Counted from the first letter of the stretch, positions 13,088 to 20,111 are shown. The stretch: DNA of 64,000 nt from Vicinamibacterales bacterium (GCA_035491715.1 DATJKH010000140.1:2071-66070); one strand, 5' to 3'. The notes: a model not told the origin generated them from the sequence alone. Numbers and translations: made by a program.

Positions 13088-14002
13088 CTATTCATTCGCA
13101 ATGTCTCTATGCTTGACACGCAATCTGACCCCCGGAATTCCCGACAGTCCCTTCCGTAGCGCCTCCGCAATCGCGACCGACCGATGCCGCCCGCCAGTGC
13201 ATCCGATTCCGATCGTCAAATACGTTTTTCCTTCATGAGCGTACTGCGGAATCAGGAACTTCAGCAGGTTGAGTGTGTGGTCCAGGAAGTCGTGAGTGGC
13301 GCTGGATCGATCGAGATACCGAGCGACTTCCGCGTCTCGTCCCGTGTACGGCCGTAGCGCAGGTACGAAATGCGGATTGGGGAGAAACCGCACGTCAAAC
13401 AACAGATCCGAGTCGACCGGAATGCCGTGCTTGAACCCGAAGCTCAGAATCGTGACGACGAGTTGCGATCCAGGGGTGCTGCCCGACGCGACCCCGGTGA
13501 AGACGTGTCGCAATTCATGGACGGTCATCTCCGTCGTGTCGATGACGTGATCGGCCAGCTTCCGGATGGCGCGCATCGCGTCCCGCTCTTCCCTGATTCC
13601 TTCGATCGCCGATCGATCGGGTGCGAGCGGATGGGGCCGGCGGGTCTCGCTGAATCGCCGCACCAACGCAGGCTCGGCCGCCTCAAGGAATATCAGGACC
13701 GGATTCAAATTCTTCCGCGCCTTCAAGCGACGGTAGACGCCCGGAAACTCCTTGAGCATCTTCCCTTCGCGCACGTCGACGACGACGGCGGCGCGGGAAA
13801 TCTCGGTACCGGCCCTGAGCGTCAGTTCCGCGAGCATCGGCAGGAGCGTCACCGGCAGGTTATCGACGCAGAAGTACCCAAGATCCTCGAGAGCACGGAT
13901 CGCCTGGGATTTTCCCGATCCGGAAAGGCCGGTGAGCACGACGAAGCGGGAGGTCACCGCCGTGCGAGCGGCCCGTCGGGCAGCGTGGCGCTTCTCTCGC
14001 AT
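13088..14002 (-). CDS. rapZ: RNase adapter / nucleotide-binding protein RapZ (YvcJ family)
   Basis: 304 aa. Walker A GLSGSGKS, C-terminal GCTGGRHRSV motif. Confidence 0.9.
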   Translation of the reverse strand: MREKRHAARRAARTAVTSRFVVLTGLSGSGKSQAIRALEDLGYFCVDNLPVTLLPMLAELTLRAGTEISRAAVVVDVREGKMLKEFPGVYRRLKARKNLNPVLIFLEAAEPALVRRFSETRRPHPLAPDRSAIEGIREERDAMRAIRKLADHVIDTTEMTVHELRHVFTGVASGSTPGSQLVVTILSFGFKHGIPVDSDLLFDVRFLPNPHFVPALRPYTGRDAEVARYLDRSSATHDFLDHTLNLLKFLIPQYAHEGKTYLTIGIGCTGGRHRSVAIAEALRKGLSGIPGVRLRVKHRDIANE

Positions 14003-14988
14003 CAGTGATCCTCTCCCAAATCAACATCCTGGCCGCGGCCGGCGAGCCGGTCGTTCAGGCGAGTCACAAGTTTGCGGGCTGCATGGTGGCCGCGGACTCG
14101 CAACAGCTGGTTACGCGCCGCGACTTCGACGAGAATCGCCACGTTACGGCCCGGAGCGACCGGCATCCGAATCATCGGCGTGCGCACGCCGAGTGTTTCA
14201 TAGAACTCGTCGTCGACGCCGAGCCGATCGTATTCCCGGCCGTGCTCCCAGCGTTCGAGTTGCACCACCAGTTCGACGCGCTTCGACGATCGTGTCGAGG
14301 CGACGCCAAAAAGATCCTGCACGTTAATCAACCCGAGGCCGCGAATCTCCATGTGGTTCCGCGTCAACTCCGGACATGTTCCGATGAGGAACGACTGTGC
14401 CCGGCATCTGAGTTCGACGACGTCGTCGGCGACAAGGCGGTGGCCACGAACGACCAGATCCAGCGCACATTCACTTTTGCCGATGCCGCTCTCTCCGATC
14501 ACGAGCACGCCAAGGCCGAGGATGTCCATCAGCACGCCGTGGACCACACCGCGCGCGGCGAGATGGGCATCGAGGATCGACGAGAGTTTCGAGATCGCTT
14601 CAGGCGTCGGCGTTCGCGACCGCAGCAACGGCACGCTGGCGCGGTCGGCTTCGGTGATGGTTTCCGGCGGCGGCGAGGCGCCTCCGGTCACCAGCAGGCA
14701 CGGAAGCTCGTGGCTGAACACCCGCCGTAGCGCGACGGCGCGGTCCTCGGCGGTCAGCGTTTCGAGATATCGCACTTCGCTCGTGCCGAACACGAGCACA
14801 CGGCCGGGACGGAGGTAGGCATCGAACCCCGAGAGCGCGAGGCCGGTCTTCTGGGTGTGCGGAATGGTGATCTGGCGTTCGAGGCCCGACTGCCCGGCAA
14901 GCAGTTCGAGATCGAAAGCGCCGGAATCCGAGACGTCTCGAAGGATGGTTGCGACGGTGACGCCCCGCGGCTGGGCGGTTTCGGTCAT
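14002..14988 (-). CDS. hprK: HPr kinase/phosphorylase
   Basis: 328 aa. P-loop GESGIGKSECALDLV, followed by the LVADD and EIRGLG signature. Confidence 0.9.
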   Translation of the reverse strand: MTETAQPRGVTVATILRDVSDSGAFDLELLAGQSGLERQITIPHTQKTGLALSGFDAYLRPGRVLVFGTSEVRYLETLTAEDRAVALRRVFSHELPCLLVTGGASPPPETITEADRASVPLLRSRTPTPEAISKLSSILDAHLAARGVVHGVLMDILGLGVLVIGESGIGKSECALDLVVRGHRLVADDVVELRCRAQSFLIGTCPELTRNHMEIRGLGLINVQDLFGVASTRSSKRVELVVQLERWEHGREYDRLGVDDEFYETLGVRTPMIRMPVAPGRNVAILVEVAARNQLLRVRGHHAARKLVTRLNDRLAGRGQDVDLGEDH

Positions 14989-15056: not shown

Positions 15057-15581
15057 TTACTCCGGCTCGATCAATCCGAGATTTCCGTCCTTTCGTCGGT
15101 ACAAAATGCTGACCGTATCGGTCTCAGCATTGCGGAACACGACGAAGTTCTCTCCCTCGCCATCAACGCGCAGGGCCGCGTCTTCGAGTGACATCGGTTT
15201 CACGGCGTACCGCGTGTTTTTGACAATCCGCGGGGCCGGCGGCGTGTCGCCCGGTGCGGCGCGAACGACGCGGGGAGCAGTCGTCCGTTTCCGGCCATCC
15301 CACTTGCCCTTCAACGTCTGCGCCTGCTGCTCGATCTTCTCCGTCGCCTGGCGGATCGAGATCGGCCACGCATTGCCTTCGCCGTTCCCGCGGAGCACGT
15401 GGTCCCCCTTCGTGTGGACGGCAATCTCCGTACGCAGACGGTACTTCTCTTTCGTCAGCGTGATGATTGCGGAGACAGCCGCGTCGTTCAGGAGACGCTC
15501 GAGACGGGAGAAACGTTTGGTAATCAGCTGCCGCACAGGAGCGGTGATCTCCACGTGCCGGCCGGTTATATCGAGTCGCAT
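15057..15581 (-). CDS. hpf: Ribosome hibernation promoting factor (long HPF)
   Basis: 174 aa. MRLDITGRHVEIT start typical of sigma-54 modulation/HPF proteins, plus a C-terminal dimerisation domain. Confidence 0.9.
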   Translation of the reverse strand: MRLDITGRHVEITAPVRQLITKRFSRLERLLNDAAVSAIITLTKEKYRLRTEIAVHTKGDHVLRGNGEGNAWPISIRQATEKIEQQAQTLKGKWDGRKRTTAPRVVRAAPGDTPPAPRIVKNTRYAVKPMSLEDAALRVDGEGENFVVFRNAETDTVSILYRRKDGNLGLIEPE

Positions 15582-15587
15582 AAAGAA

Positions 15588-15680
15588 AGCTTCCAGCTCC
15601 CAGCTGTCAGCTTCCAGCTCACATTACTCGCAGCGTCCGCGTTCAGCAGCTGGTAGCCGGAAGCGGGAAGCTGGAACCTG
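15588..15680 (-). repeat. Heptad-periodic palindromic element (TNCCAGC units) between rpoN and hpf
   Basis: Plus-strand arm agcTTCCAGC TCCCAGC TGTCAGC TTCCAGC TCAC, ~21-nt loop, then the inverse arm CAGCAGCTGGTAGCCGGAAGCGGGAAGCTGGAACCTG. Confidence 0.8.
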
Positions 15681-15691
15681 ACACGTGAAGC

Positions 15692-17131
15692 TCAAAAGAG
15701 CACTTTTCTCTGGTTCGATGTTGGAATCTTCAGCTCCTCGCGATACTTCGCGATGGTGCGGCGGGCGAGCATCAGCCCTTCTTTCTGGAGGATGCTCACG
15801 ATTTTCGAGTCGCTCAACGGCTTTCGCGGATCCTCGTTCTCGATGATCTTGCGGATGCGCTGTTTGATGGTGACCGATGAGACGCTCTCGCCGAACGAGC
15901 TGCTGATCCCGCTGTGGAAAAAGTATTTCAGCTCGAAGACGCCCTGCGGCGTATGCATGTATTTGTTGTTGACGACGCGGCTGACGGTGGACTCGTGCAT
16001 ACCGATGTCGTTGGCGACATCACGAAGCACGAGCGGCCGCAGATACTCGATCCCGTGATCGAGAAACTCGCGTTGAAAATTGATGATGCTGGTCGCCACC
16101 TTGTGAATCGTCTTCTGCCGCTGATCGACCGACTTGATCAGCCAGAGCGCCGATCGGAATTTGTCCTTCACATAGGCGCGCGTCTCGTCGTTCTGCTCTC
16201 CGCCGCCGGCGCCGGTCTTGTCGAGCAGCCGTCGGTACACAGGACTGATCCGCAGTTGCGGCAGTCCTTCTTCGTTCAACGCGGCGACGTACTGATCCTC
16301 GACCTTGACCACGTACACGTCGGGGATCACGTATTGTGATTGCGACGGGTTGTAGCGGCTCCCCGGCTTCGGATCCAGGTTGCGAATAATCTCGACGTGT
16401 TCCTTCAAGTCGTCGAGCGAGATGCCCAGCTTCCTCGCGATTTCAGGAACCTGATGGTTCTGGAGCAGTCGCAGGTGTTCAGTGACGATCTTCTCGGTCG
16501 GGGTGCCTTCGAGACCGAGATGACGAATCTGGAGCCAGAGACATTCCTGCAGATCACGCGCCGCGACACCGATCGGATCGAACGTCTGCACGTGCTGCAG
16601 CGCCCGTTCGACATCGGCGACGGGCCACTCCCCCATGGCCGCGATTTCCTCGACCGACGCGACCAGATACCCGTCGTCGTCGAGATTGCCGATAATCGCG
16701 CCACCGATCTCCTTGAGCCGTTCGTCGTCTGTTTGTAGGGAGAGTTGCCAGAGAAGGTGGTCGGAGAGCGAAGCCGCCGTCGAGAGTGTGTTCTCGATCG
16801 GCGGCAGTTCCTTGACCTCGGACGGGGTCCGGGAGCGATACCCGTCGTCGAGATAGTCTCCGAAGAAATATTCGTAGTCGGCGTCGTCCCACGGATCGCC
16901 CTTGTCGGCGGGCTGCTGTTCCGCGGCTTTCTCCTGCTGCTGCTGTTGTTCGGCCGGCTGCAGTTCCTCGGTCGGCACCTCTTCGAGCAGGGGGTTCTCG
17001 ACCATTTCCTGGTTCAGCAACTCCGCGAGCTCGAGTGTCGACATCGGCAACAGCTTGATCGCCTGTTGCAGCGATGGAGTAAGGATGAGCTTTTGAACGA
17101 GCTTGGTATGGAGCTTCTGCTGAATCGCCAT
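15692..17131 (-). CDS. rpoN: RNA polymerase sigma-54 factor
   Basis: 479 aa. Gln/Glu-rich region I, C-terminal RpoN box ARRTIAKYRE. Confidence 0.95.
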   Translation of the reverse strand: MAIQQKLHTKLVQKLILTPSLQQAIKLLPMSTLELAELLNQEMVENPLLEEVPTEELQPAEQQQQQEKAAEQQPADKGDPWDDADYEYFFGDYLDDGYRSRTPSEVKELPPIENTLSTAASLSDHLLWQLSLQTDDERLKEIGGAIIGNLDDDGYLVASVEEIAAMGEWPVADVERALQHVQTFDPIGVAARDLQECLWLQIRHLGLEGTPTEKIVTEHLRLLQNHQVPEIARKLGISLDDLKEHVEIIRNLDPKPGSRYNPSQSQYVIPDVYVVKVEDQYVAALNEEGLPQLRISPVYRRLLDKTGAGGGEQNDETRAYVKDKFRSALWLIKSVDQRQKTIHKVATSIINFQREFLDHGIEYLRPLVLRDVANDIGMHESTVSRVVNNKYMHTPQGVFELKYFFHSGISSSFGESVSSVTIKQRIRKIIENEDPRKPLSDSKIVSILQKEGLMLARRTIAKYREELKIPTSNQRKVLF

Positions 17132-17164: not shown

Positions 17165-17890
17165 TTAGTCCAATCGGAACTCCGAGCCGAGGTAAATCCG
17201 TTTCACGTCCTCGTCGGCGGCGAGGCTGGCGGGGGTTCCACTGCGGAAAATTACCCCATCATGGACGATATAAGCACGGTCCGTTATCCTGAGCGTTTCC
17301 CGCACGTTGTGGTCGGTGATCAAGACACCGATCCCTCGCTCCTTGAGATGAAAGACGATCTTCTGGATGTCGGTCACCGCAATCGGATCGATTCCGGCGA
17401 ACGGCTCATCCAGGAGCATGATTTTCGGCGACACCACGAGTGCACGGGTGATTTCGACGCGCCGCCGTTCGCCCCCCGACAGGGTGTAGGCGGGCGCCTT
17501 CGCAAGCGGCGTCAGGCCGAGTTCGGCGAGCAGTTCGGTTCGGCGATTGCGGCGACTGGCCGAGTCAAGCGGAAGGGTTTCGAGAATGGCGGTAATGTTG
17601 TCTTCAACGCTGAGGCCGCGAAAGATCGATGCTTCCTGCGGCAGATATCCGATGCCTTTTCGGGCTCGGACGTACATCGGATCGTCGGTCACGTCCGAGC
17701 CATCAAGCAGGACCCGTCCGGAATCGGGCGCTGTCAGGCCCACCACCATTGAAAAGGTTGTCGTCTTTCCGGCACCGTTCGGACCGAGCAGACCGACAAC
17801 CTCGCCCGACGAGACATCCAGATTCACGCCCTTGACGACCGTGCGGCCGCTGTAAGACTTTGTGAGGTCGGTCGTATGTAGTGTGGCCAC
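17165..17890 (-). CDS. lptB: LPS export ABC transporter ATP-binding protein LptB
   Basis: 241 aa. [31 protein letters not shown]. Position immediately upstream of rpoN. Confidence 0.92.
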
Positions 17891-17893
17891 GTC

Positions 17894-20101
17894 CTATCGC
17901 GTCTCCGTCGGACACGCGATTGACGTCGCCACAGATCTGATTAGGTTGTTTCCGGTCATCGTGATGCTGTCGACGGCGCGCTGGAATTTGAGGACGGACC
18001 CGACCGACTTCTTGCAGTCGGGTGGCGCGATTTCGACAGCTTCGACCGGTGTTCCGGTCATGTGATACGTTTCGTCGCGGGCCAGATACGTCACACGGGC
18101 GCCAGTGGCCACGCGGCCGCCTTCCTTGACCACCACCGAACCATTCGCGCCATAGCCTTCGACGCGCTCGAGCTCATTGACGTCCTTCTTCATAAACAGC
18201 TCGAGCTTTTCGGCCGCGACGTCCCCCTGTGAACCGATCAGGTGCGCCTTGGTGGTGTAGGTCGCCAGACGTTTCGCGTCGTCGTACAAAAATGTTTCCG
18301 ATTCTCCAGTTGACTTCGTGCTCTTGCGCACATTGGTCTTCGGATCGACGTCGTCCATCATCATTTCGGTATGCACGTTGACGCGAGCTTCCAGGTTGCC
18401 GGTCTTATCGTCAACCACGATGGTGTCGGCGTTCACTTTGGTGACTCCCTGCCACAACCGGGAATTTCCAACGTAGACGGCGCGGCCTGCCAGCCCATCG
18501 TAGTCGAGCCGGTTGGACGTGACGGTGACGGGTTGGTCCTGCTGGAGCAGCGACGGGACGTGTGTGTCCGAACCGGATCGGTTCGCCGGGGTCTGACCCT
18601 GGTCTGACCCCGGTTTGACCCCGGTCTGACCCCGGTCTGGCCCCTTCTGCGGCAGCATGGACGTTCGCACTTTCGTGTCCGCTTTCAGCTTCCGCGTTCC
18701 AATCGAGAACTCGATCGTTCGCGCTTCGACGGTGACACGCCCGTCGCTCACCCGCGGGGCCGGCGGACCCGGATCCTGCGATGGCGACAGATCGATCTGG
18801 TCTTTGTCGACATGGTACAAGCCGTGAGTCGAGTCGGCCACGACCTGCGGACCGTCGGTGAAGTGCACGTTGCCGCGAAAGTCTGCCTGTTCGACCGCGC
18901 CAAACCCCGGCTTGGTCGTCACGATCAGGGTCATCGCGCGGGCCTGCCGATCGATCGCCGGCAGAGTGCCGCGTGCCGCGCGGATCTCGCGATAGTCGAC
19001 ATTGCCGCCAAACGTTGCGTTCTGCAGCCCCGTTCCCGGTGCGCCGGTGGCGTTCAAAGTCGCTGAACGAATCCGCTTTGCGGGTGAATCGCCGTCGGGC
19101 GGCAGGTCCACCTGGACGTTCTCCATCGCGTCGAGATTGGTCAGCGTCTTGCCATCTGGCGACATCGTCAGGTCGATCGTCTTCCCGGCGACCCGCTTCC
19201 CTGCACCGTTGCCTTCACCCGGCAGCTGGACGACCGCGTTTTCGACCAGATGCGAACGCTGGAGCGTGCGGCCATCGTCGCCGTAGGTCAGGTCGATGTC
19301 GCGAGCGGTCATCGATTGCGGACCGCCGTCGCCAGAGCCGGTGATCCGGCTGTTGTTGCGGAGCTGCAGAAGCTGGACGCGCTGATCGTCCTGGGTCAGC
19401 ATGATGGTGATGTCGTCGGCGTCGATCACCCGTCCTTCGGCAACGATATGTGCGCTTCGCGTCAGCTTCAGATAGTGTTCCGCTCTCGCGAGGCCGATCG
19501 TTTCGGCCCTGGCATCGATCGCGCCCTGACCTTTCTCGTCAGGCGTCACAGTCACGTGCGGCTGCGCCAACAGCCACAGCACTTCACGGTTGAAATCGTA
19601 GGTCGCTCCGACACCGGTTCCGTGCATACGACTACGCGTGAAGGCGACCGGTCCGGGTGCCTTGAGTAGTCCGGCCTGGTGATCATAGGTCGCGTCCTCG
19701 GTCGTGACCTCGGTGCCGTCGCTCGTCAGCTTGACCGCGCCGATGTAATGCGCCGTCTTCAAATCCTCACCAGCCTGAACCACCTCCGCCTCGTTGCTTC
19801 GAACCGTGAACGGCTTTCCATTTCTCTCCGACGTGATCTCGACACCATTCACCAGACGTGTGCGACCGTCGCTGTAGCTGCACTGGCCGCCAAACTTCAT
19901 GGAGAACACAATCTTGCCGTCTTTCGACTGCTTGATTTCGCCGCCCTGCATGTTTTCGAGAATGCAGTCCTTGTCGCGCCGCTCGGGCACGGCCGCGGCA
20001 GCCGGCGGCGCCTGACGCTGACGCAAGGCGATAGCGACGATCGCGATGAAGACGATCACGAACGCGGCGATAGCGAACCGGGCCTTTTTCTGCCAAGTCA
20101 T
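17894..20101 (-). CDS. Membrane-anchored LptC/LptA (OstA-like) multi-repeat protein, putative fused LPS-transport bridge
   Basis: 735 aa. Single N-terminal TM (FAIAAFVIVFIAIVAIAL), then several OstA-like repeats of the 'A..l.Yd......a.l.GnV' kind. Occupies the lptC-lptA position upstream of lptB. Confidence 0.7.
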   Translation of the reverse strand: MTWQKKARFAIAAFVIVFIAIVAIALRQRQAPPAAAAVPERRDKDCILENMQGGEIKQSKDGKIVFSMKFGGQCSYSDGRTRLVNGVEITSERNGKPFTVRSNEAEVVQAGEDLKTAHYIGAVKLTSDGTEVTTEDATYDHQAGLLKAPGPVAFTRSRMHGTGVGATYDFNREVLWLLAQPHVTVTPDEKGQGAIDARAETIGLARAEHYLKLTRSAHIVAEGRVIDADDITIMLTQDDQRVQLLQLRNNSRITGSGDGGPQSMTARDIDLTYGDDGRTLQRSHLVENAVVQLPGEGNGAGKRVAGKTIDLTMSPDGKTLTNLDAMENVQVDLPPDGDSPAKRIRSATLNATGAPGTGLQNATFGGNVDYREIRAARGTLPAIDRQARAMTLIVTTKPGFGAVEQADFRGNVHFTDGPQVVADSTHGLYHVDKDQIDLSPSQDPGPPAPRVSDGRVTVEARTIEFSIGTRKLKADTKVRTSMLPQKGPDRGQTGVKPGSDQGQTPANRSGSDTHVPSLLQQDQPVTVTSNRLDYDGLAGRAVYVGNSRLWQGVTKVNADTIVVDDKTGNLEARVNVHTEMMMDDVDPKTNVRKSTKSTGESETFLYDDAKRLATYTTKAHLIGSQGDVAAEKLELFMKKDVNELERVEGYGANGSVVVKEGGRVATGARVTYLARDETYHMTGTPVEAVEIAPPDCKKSVGSVLKFQRAVDSITMTGNNLIRSVATSIACPTETR
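18589..18643 (-). repeat. Five tandem copies of an 11-bp unit (GGTCTGACCCC consensus) inside the LptC/LptA-like CDS
   Basis: Units ggtctgaccct ggtctgacccc ggtttgacccc ggtctgacccc ggtctggcccc. Encodes ...GPDRGQTGVKPGSDQGQTP... Confidence 0.9.
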
Positions 20102-20111
20102 CTCGGTTGAA

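Follow-up and report, generated by a model that had tools for sequence, protein, structure and literature searches.

A 64,000-nt stretch of a Vicinamibacterales genome (GCA_035491715.1, DATJKH010000140.1:2071-66070; hereafter the window, at its full length) carries a long hairpin of 7-nt repeats between rpoN, the gene for sigma-54, and hpf, the gene for a ribosome hibernation-promoting factor. This hairpin is a single member of a class of inverted heptad-repeat arrays that occurs across the lineage, here with the unit YCAGYTN. Our favoured reading, to which we assign a probability of about 0.6, is that it represents a DNA-level repeat that was inserted behind the rpoN stop codon, turns over fast and is tolerated, with incidental effects on the mRNA like those of repetitive extragenic palindromic (REP) elements. 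An earlier interpretation of the window, made from its sequence alone (the original prediction), had treated the element as a third unit family of heptad palindromes, and had reasoned from Proteobacteria; the host is a soil acidobacterium (Vicinamibacterales), and neither an independent family nor a dedicated role in the control of rpoN and hpf agrees with the comparisons reported here.

The element occupies the 110-nt rpoN-hpf spacer (15582-15691), within the order lptB-rpoN / hpf-hprK-rapZ. On the plus strand, 15588-15680 reads AGCTTCCAGC TCCCAGC TGTCAGC TTCCAGC TCAC, the loop, and then CAGCAGCTGG TAGCCGG AAGCGGG AAGCTGG AACCTG, which are the letters originally quoted; in mRNA sense, the sequence of the spacer is GCUUCACGUGUC AGGUUCCAGCUUCCCGCUUCCGGCUACCAGCUG (loop) GAGCUGGAAGCUGACAGCUGGGAGCUGGAAGC UUUCUUU AUG. 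Tandem Repeats Finder (TRF) identifies period 7 in both arms (15588-15620, 4.7 copies; 15655-15676, 3.1 copies), and the spacer folds into one long imperfect hairpin with a minimum free energy (MFE) of -52.5 kcal/mol, compared to a shuffle mean of -40.7 (z -3.2; 0 of 200 dinucleotide-preserving shuffles fold as well), confirming the two inverted period-7 arrays that had been described between these genes.

Read along the mRNA (minus strand), the stem extends from 15679 to 15588. Its 5' arm, AGGTTCCAGCTTCCCGCTTCCGGCTACCAGCTG (15647-15679), comprises about 4-5 YCAGCTN units and its 3' arm, GAGCTGG AAGCTGA CAGCTGG GAGCTGG AAGCT (15588-15620), comprises NAGCTGR units; both are supported by TRF and are paired in folds, where 6-bp blocks formed by the shared six-base core are set apart by mostly mismatched single positions. 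The loop (15621-15646) is locus-specific, contains a small internal 5-bp hairpin in the fold and measures ~26-32 nt depending on where the arms are cut, rather than ~21 nt as first proposed. Between the rpoN stop codon (15692-15694) and the stem are 12 nt, GCTTCACGTGTC (15680-15691), which are unpaired in the MFE structure and which we read as decayed outer heptads, partly of TCA type. On the other side, sequence and fold leave TTCTTT (15582-15587) unpaired between the stem and the hpf ATG (15579-15581). The 3' arm had been reported to end 4 nt before this ATG, which is accurate for the last recognisable unit, AAGCTTT, but not for the last paired base, which lies 6 nt before it. The sole GGAG/GGAA runs upstream of hpf that resemble a Shine-Dalgarno (SD) sequence lie inside the 3' arm.

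Both flanking genes are minus-strand open reading frames (ORFs) with NCBIfam assignments. The rpoN ORF (15692-17131) matches NCBIfam TIGR02395 at 465 bits (cut-off 277), and the 174-aa long-form hibernation-promoting factor encoded by hpf (15057-15581) matches NCBIfam TIGR00741 at 44.7 bits (cut-off 40.9), with an alignment that starts at residue 1.

Heptad hairpins in the window genome and its relatives

The window genome (G000), a draft of 6.73 Mb in 223 contigs with 62% G+C, is the source of the genome-wide counts below except where relatives are named. At one fixed stringency it contains 217 arrays of period 7, compared with 21 and 45 arrays of periods 6 and 8, respectively, and there are 118 occurrences of the three-unit pattern CCAGCTNCCAGCTNCCAGCT versus 0 in a backwards control. 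A more sensitive scan returned 484 heptad arrays, about half of them with an inverted partner no more than 130 nt away, and ~160 inverted-pair hairpin elements, about 90% of which are intergenic; only 11 of 160 paired elements overlap called coding sequence over >50%. These hairpins share their period and architecture with the rpoN-hpf element, as do the other heptad palindromes of the window, in agreement with the original prediction.

By gene orientation, 97 elements lie between co-directional genes, 35 between convergent and 16 between divergent ones. They hug the upstream gene, at a median distance of 5 nt after the upstream stop versus 15 nt before the downstream start, and of 87 co-directional elements, 48 occupy the gap from end to end, 20 lie close to the stop alone and 4 close to the start alone. 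The 3' arm at rpoN-hpf reaches to within 4 nt of the hpf ATG because the element fills a gap that was formerly ~10 nt. Co-directional elements are also unevenly divided between strands (65 between minus-strand pairs and 32 between plus-strand pairs), though the orientation of draft contigs should be arbitrary; this imbalance probably reflects clustering in a few operons.

The families of 5'-arm units in this genome are CCAGCTN together with CCAGTTN; TTCAATG; AAGGGAA and GGAGAAG; ATTGCTG; ATCCGGG; and a ~150-nt AATCACT element. Arm order is fixed in every family, with YCAGYTN always forming the 5' arm and NARCTGR always the 3' arm, and the reversed arrangement was found in no family of the window genome and in none of the relatives. 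Because the hairpin reads alike on both strands, this polarity belongs to the DNA itself and does not depend on the direction of transcription. CCAGCTN and CCAGTTN are mixed within single arrays (for example, at C17:12678 and C42:8029, where C denotes a contig of the window genome), and the rpoN-hpf element therefore belongs to one superfamily with the GTTNCCA elements at window positions 20111 and 52042. As CCAGCTN is a single transition from CCAGTTN, the unit of the GTTNCCA family, the proposed third family is not an independent one; judged by their units, CCAGCTN, CCAGTTN and TCAGCTN are members of one YCAGYTN superfamily. Hairpins of the GGAGAAG family (ACAGGAGAAGGGAGAAGGGAG...CTCCCTTCTCCNTTCTCCTGT) also occur as local tandem copies 130-700 nt apart (C170:8882-9202, C191:237-552, C194:185-928 and C155:21865-22142), which suggests that they are part of a larger repeated unit.

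Whole-genome counts of three-unit CCAGCTN and TCAGCTN patterns (backwards control zero or near zero) separate the window genome and its relatives by preferred unit. CCAGCTN and TCAGCTN were counted 118 and 1 times in the window genome, 91 and 0 times in G003 (the genome of locus L001) and 156 and 26 times in G011, versus 25 and 269 times in G004 (L003), 25 and 135 in G007, 11 and 81 in G012 and 7 and 104 in G015. The unit at rpoN-hpf is of the genome's majority type in 12 of 15 genomes, which is suggestive only, as the genomes are not independent. Compared in this way, the arrays show that unit type follows the genome and not the locus. In G018 and G021, which are without either type, the period-7 excess persists and is made of other units. 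More widely, four-unit YCAGYTN arrays were detected in 36 of 301 sampled Acidobacteriota genomes, including at least ten distant families, and in none of 24 genomes from other families of the order; TCAGTTG and TCAGTTA arrays are present in other Acidobacteriota.

At the rpoN-hpf junction itself, we fetched 80 loci from other species of the lineage, 66 of which include both genes. The gap in these 66 relatives ranges from 0 to 121 nt, being ≤15 nt in 19 (for example, GCC, TCGTC or TTTCACATC), intermediate (19-50 nt) in 11 and ≥60 nt in 36. Its occupants are diverse: CCAGCTN hairpins (L001, L004, L013, L021, L041, L056 and others), TCAGCTN hairpins (L003, L005-7, L023, L025, L026, L043, L044), CCAGTTN hairpins (L002, L008), other variants elsewhere and, in L019, direct ATCCGTG repeats. 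The start-proximal arm stands alone in L009, L012, L035 and L037 (39-62 nt), and four one-armed arrays are counted among the intermediates.

On a tree of the relatives built from flanking coding DNA (the marker), all nine basal relatives have gaps of 4-32 nt without a heptad array, while in the inner clade occupied states, empty states and unit types are interleaved. The short basal gaps and the interleaving of states therefore make the element an insertion relative to the ancestral state, neither conserved nor required, and the comparison of relatives shows that it entered a gap between rpoN and hpf that was formerly ≤15 nt. The description of a non-coding structured insertion that splits rpoN from hpf thus holds, since the empty state (a 0-15-nt gap) is seen in relatives, whereas a dedicated regulatory role is at odds with a site that is empty, half-filled or differently filled from one relative to the next, and that lacks a terminator tail.

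Some copies can be followed between species. The flank GCTTCRCNTGTCA is common to the window copy, L001 and L004, and 14 nt of the loop (TGAACGCGGACGCT) are common to the window copy and L001; these three elements are therefore orthologous. In L023, the nearest relative, whose marker DNA is 93% identical, TCAGCTN arrays begin right at the stop codon. We considered and discarded the idea that units are switched between identical genomes: RpoN proteins are 98-100% identical, yet the DNA marker is only 81-93% identical. Turnover is fast, but it takes place between species and not within a strain.

The same behaviour recurs in the ribosomal-protein superoperon. From rpsL to rplQ (contig C17, 9-30 kb, beyond the window), 11-13 CCAGCTN/CCAGTTN hairpins are located at gene junctions, such that 11 of 42 CAGCT/CAGTT hairpins, about a quarter, fall in 0.3% of the genome; outside the superoperon, hairpin-flanking genes have higher codon adaptation (p = 9e-6). 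A comparison of 30 ribosomal-protein junctions in nine genomes found hairpins of 70-200 nt at 10-17 junctions in each inner-clade genome and mostly tight gaps in two basal genomes. Junctions at which genes overlap (-1 or -4) are never occupied, and some others carry an element in almost all genomes. At a given junction, the units are those of the genome concerned: rpsJ/rplC, for instance, holds CCAGCTN in the window genome, TCAGCTN in G012 and G008, GCTGATC in G018 and CCGGGAT in G001. Compared with the nearest relative, with which it shares 93% identity at the marker, the window genome differs in occupancy at 13 of 30 junctions. Filled-versus-empty pairs reveal a clean insertion right behind the stop codon, with the ancestral spacer and SD sequence retained on the 3' side, and losses leave short 3'-arm remnants. 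No target-site duplication was found in the g14/g15 and g28/g29 filled-versus-empty comparisons, a small sample. At junction g13/g14 of G001 (the L023 genome), a 98-nt ATTGCTG-type hairpin occupies a gap that is 2 nt (CC) in six other genomes; this insert brings its own SD-like sequence, a terminal CAGGAG located 8 nt upstream of the start codon.

A probable DNA-level repeat and its rivals

Under our favoured reading, a DNA-level process would make and turn over the element, inserting it directly behind stop codons; slippage would then expand and contract the arrays, and palindrome deletion would remove them. Insertion between coupled genes may be tolerated because folding into a hairpin holds the upstream stop and the downstream start in physical proximity. 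Within the rpoN-hpf transcript, the hairpin would begin 12 nt after the rpoN stop and its base would bury the sole SD-like purines of hpf. The likely consequences are generic, namely that initiation at hpf is somewhat damped or made dependent on coupling and, possibly, that the rpoN 3' end is shielded from exonucleases. We do not infer a dedicated growth-phase switch, and annotation of the hairpin as a riboregulator of sigma-54 or of the hibernation factor would be unwarranted.

Several observations weigh against this reading. Placement is non-random, as seen in the 11 of 42 CAGCT/CAGTT hairpins within a 20-kb superoperon and in the codon adaptation of flanking genes (p = 9e-6), and some junctions are occupied in nearly every genome; such placement could be a sign that a function is under selection. 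Across the window genome, the sense strand shows a weak excess, both in G-U pairs (230 versus 162) and in stability (p = 0.055), and the window copy itself is 10 kcal/mol more stable on its sense strand. Moreover, slippage or simple template switching leaves the fixed polarity and the genome-specific units unexplained.

In one rival reading, the hairpin would be a dedicated cis-regulatory RNA that sequesters the ribosome-binding region of hpf or acts as an attenuator, uncoupling hpf from rpoN, so that induction of hpf awaits opening or processing of the stem, as might happen in stationary phase. The base of the stem holds the sole GGAG/GGAA runs before the hpf ATG and ends 6 nt before it, the window copy has 4 G-U pairs on the sense strand versus 1 on the antisense strand in addition to its greater sense stability, and some hairpin is present in the gap of 36 of the 66 relatives. 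However, 19 relatives have a gap of ≤15 nt, the nine basal relatives have no heptad array in theirs, and the occupants of the remaining gaps are heterogeneous (several unit types, half arrays and a REP doublet, or REPIN). Over 37 filled rpoN-hpf sites (36 relatives and the window), sense and antisense strands do not differ in stability (21:16) or in G-U pairs (96 versus 87), and the same architecture recurs at about 160 unrelated junctions. At 76 hairpins of ribosomal-protein junctions stability is evenly divided (38:38) and G-U pairs are more numerous on the antisense strand (182 sense versus 241). We therefore set aside strand-specific RNA selection, for which the weak signal of the window genome is not replicated at rpoN-hpf or at ribosomal-protein junctions.

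Covariation among related genomes, which the original prediction had put forward as a check, is likewise missing at the variable seventh base of the unit: Watson-Crick pairs between the arms make up 28.6% versus 26.6% expected in the relatives, and 13% versus 31% expected in the window genome. The two Y positions of the unit match between arms. We also rejected a selected periodic mismatch at the seventh position, because pairing there is below chance in the window genome and merely random in the relatives. A search of Rfam 15 returned no family at the gathering threshold; at E ≤ 10 there were only sub-threshold matches to eukaryotic miRNA precursors, which are generic hairpins. A dedicated regulatory RNA at this site appears distinctly improbable.

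A transcription terminator or attenuator parting the rpoN transcript from the hpf transcript would account for a long stable hairpin right behind a stop codon and followed by UUCUUU, and the class is proportionally commoner in convergent gaps (35 of 802) than in divergent ones (16 of 813). Yet a scan for intrinsic terminators found none at rpoN-hpf, where the tail is UUCUUU, and in the class as a whole at least 5 T in the 8 nt after the stem occur in 6 of 87 co-directional elements versus 9 of 87 on the antisense side. Similar hairpins also lie inside ribosomal-protein operons, which must be read through, and termination is hence a very improbable role, the least credible of those considered.

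Many dispersed copies, fixed polarity, subfamilies particular to each genome and rapid turnover (13 of 30 ribosomal-protein junctions) are also features of a miniature mobile element, similar to a miniature inverted-repeat transposable element (MITE) or a REPIN and moved in trans by a transposase, or of the remnant of an insertion-sequence (IS) end. The window genome does hold a true MITE-like family, the ~150-nt AATCACT element with heptad-like ends, whose interiors are 97-98% identical, and REPINs occur in the rpoN-hpf gap of L031 and L039. For the heptad hairpins, however, loops are unique: no two CAGCT, CAGTT or CAATG copies in the window genome have matching loops, and the window loop is unique in its genome (blastn-short). 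We found no segment of 0.2-6 kb bounded by complementary heptad arms and containing a transposase-like gene, within the limits that a draft assembly sets on this test, and the matches were adjacent hairpins in operons. Three Y1-transposase (PF01797) genes, candidates for a link to REP-associated tyrosine transposases (RAYTs), are present in the genome, none with a heptad array within 2.5 kb, and the hairpins have no GTAG head. Because loops are unique, no bounded transposase segment was found and Y1-transposase genes are not close by, classic transposition of a master copy is unsupported. The MITE and IS-remnant candidates were accordingly rejected on the absence of shared loops, target-site duplications and an autonomous partner, and we consider a mobile element of either kind quite unlikely.

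MITE-like and REP-like elements were observed alongside the heptad class. The AATCACT copies (C170:31932, C77:17782, C193:846, C100:68445 and about 10 more; up to 97-98% identical) have the ends AATCGCTAATCACTGATCACT...AGTGATCAGTGATTAGCGATT and an interior of GAATCNT-like repeats. The Y1-transposase gene at C81:24875-25738 has its own inverted repeats, with GGTGTCAGGCAGTGAATCGTGAAC twice upstream and the complement downstream, and probably represents a RAYT accompanied by the REP that belongs to it, with no connection to the heptad hairpins. In the relatives, a GTAG-headed, REPIN-like palindrome doublet (TTTGTAGGCCCGACCTTCAGGTCGGGCGTGCTC...GAGCACGCCCGACCTGAAGGTCGGGCCTAC) fills the rpoN-hpf gap at L031:4432-4529 and L039:4432-4536 and folds at about -70 kcal/mol, and a related palindrome, GCCCGACCTTCAGGTCGGGC, is found at junction g28/g29 of G018, on the rpsD side of the alpha operon.

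Purely local slippage is unsupported as well, because the unit repertoire is common to loci within a genome and polarity is fixed. Two further readings of the repeats were set aside: nested transposon footprints (a palindromic target plus end nucleotides), as the origin of the period, were seen on inspection to fit AGCT-containing units only, and not CCAGTT or CAATG, and a Chi-like reading of GCTGG does not extend to the other unit families, from which that motif is missing. Any mechanism has to accommodate four constraints: the absolute polarity of the arms, a unit that follows the genome, a free seventh base, and arrays that abut the upstream stop.

One speculative mechanism, which we regard as a long shot, is that the hairpins are scars of a templated end-extending activity, either telomerase-like or of the reverse-transcriptase/primase type, with a template of ~6+1 nt. 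At a break just behind a gene, such an enzyme would extend each of the two 3' ends with (YCAGYT+N)n before they are joined. If true, templated extension would explain the inverted arms, their unequal lengths and the one-armed arrays, and polarity would be absolute because synthesis proceeds only onto 3' ends. The genome-specific unit would correspond to one template per genome, the free seventh base would be added at the translocation step, and the unique loops would be junction filler; the lack of target-site duplications and a constant period with changing sequence across phyla would also follow.

Similar heptad systems and neighbouring features

Three described systems resemble the elements reported here. 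TAACTGA direct heptamer repeats were reported from intergenic regions of marine Beggiatoaceae, some Cyanobacteria and Bacteroidetes, where they lie just upstream of start codons and also inside ribosomal-protein operons, before fusA, L3 and S4 (MacGregor 2015, PMC4679880). TAACTGA is the reverse complement of TCAGTTA, a YCAGYTN unit, and the two systems have in common their period of 7, intergenic location, patchy phylogeny, presence in ribosomal-protein operons and an ARCTGR strand in sense orientation just upstream of start codons. They differ in arrangement: Beggiatoaceae have 169 direct sets and one inverted (PMC4679880), whereas about half of the arrays here have an inverted partner and form long hairpins in which an inverted arm, located just after the stop codon of the upstream gene, pairs with the ARCTGR arm before the start codon. 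The dominant variants here are also GC-richer (CCAGCTN), the seventh base is free and each genome has many other unit families. The window unit CCAGCTN is two transitions from TCAGTTN, and the intermediates CCAGTTN and TCAGCTN exist in the same arrays and in relatives; YCAGYTN and TAACTGA-type units are, at the level of the unit, continuous in sequence, which falls short of common descent.

Rehm et al. (2015, PMC4692102) reported GGGAATC heptamers in Xanthomonas (GGGGAYT in Nostoc), among them 70-75 inverted pairs of convergent orientation in each genome. As in our data, these are tandem heptamers, about 90% intergenic, mostly between co-directional genes and nearer the gene on the 5' side; their inverted pairs have one fixed (convergent) orientation, and length and sequence vary at the same junction between close relatives. 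In contrast to the heptads here, which are without G-tracts, the Xanthomonas units are G-tract units studied for quadruplex formation, and there is a single unit per genome versus about 10 unit families here.

Geobacter metallireducens has eight pairs of five tandem heptanucleotides with the consensus MTYCTGA, for example at proB-proA, annotated as putative binding sites of a global regulator (IHF/HU, where IHF is integration host factor) (Aklujkar et al. 2009, PMC2700814). These are likewise inverted pairs of about 5 heptads between co-transcribed genes, share the CTGA core and are absent or replaced by another repeat in the sister species. The differences are that only 8 pairs are described, that the host belongs to another phylum and that the protein-binding role proposed for them is putative.

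As has been proposed for the TAACTGA repeats and for the Geobacter pairs (PMC2700814), the arrays here may be sites whose core, YCAGYT/ARCTGR, is recognised in either DNA or RNA by a trans-acting protein of high abundance (an IHF/HU-like, S1, Csp or CsrA-like factor, for instance), making the hairpins a genome-wide regulatory or architectural network that includes hpf. Six conserved positions and one free position in every unit are what a recognition site with a spacer would look like, and genome-specific units would be expected if sites co-evolve with the binding protein. The enrichment in ribosomal-protein operons and beside highly expressed genes and the patchy recurrence of the core in distant families and phyla point the same way. 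Many binding proteins would be needed, however, to serve the many unrelated unit families of each genome (CAATGNT, AAGGGAA, ATTGCTG, ATCCGGG and others), and the site is dispensable in about a third of relatives, so that we hold protein binding to be rather unlikely.

Similarity to the REP elements, bacterial interspersed mosaic elements (BIMEs) and REPINs of Proteobacteria is one of setting: these too are intergenic palindromes of imperfect symmetry that are transcribed in operons, and many lie no more than about 15 nt from a stop codon. REPs are credited with protecting mRNA 3' ends and with damping translation of the upstream gene. The rpoN-hpf element is not a member of this group, as it has no GTAG or CGTC head and no conserved palindrome, and its arms are tandem heptads. 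It has the attributes of heptameric intergenic repeats (the STRR, GGGAATC and TAACTGA class): 7-nt units arranged head to tail, dispersed intergenic loci and variation between close relatives. We found no paper in the literature on such heptad elements in Acidobacteria. The four constraints listed above also connect the TAACTGA repeats, the inverted heptamer pairs of Xanthomonas and the paired heptanucleotides of Geobacter, which were published separately.

That bacterial genomes are unusually rich in 7-nt repeats has been on record since 2007, to our knowledge with no explanation to date. The lineage studied here offers a natural experiment, with dozens of closely related genomes in which the same junctions are empty, half-filled or filled by different units. 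There are also practical consequences: heptad hairpins interrupt assemblies, give rise to spurious ORFs and start codons, and alter the spacing of ribosomal-protein operons.

Other features of the window lie close to the element on the same (minus) strand. Upstream of rpoN is lptB (17165-17890); downstream of hpf follow hprK (14002-14988) and then rapZ (13088-14002). A different repeat, five tandem 11-nt units at 18590-18644 (GGGGTCAGACC on the coding strand, 90% matches), sits inside a large LptA/OstA-like ORF, the minus-strand gene at 17894-20101. As its 11-nt period is not a multiple of three, a change in copy number would shift the reading frame of this ORF.

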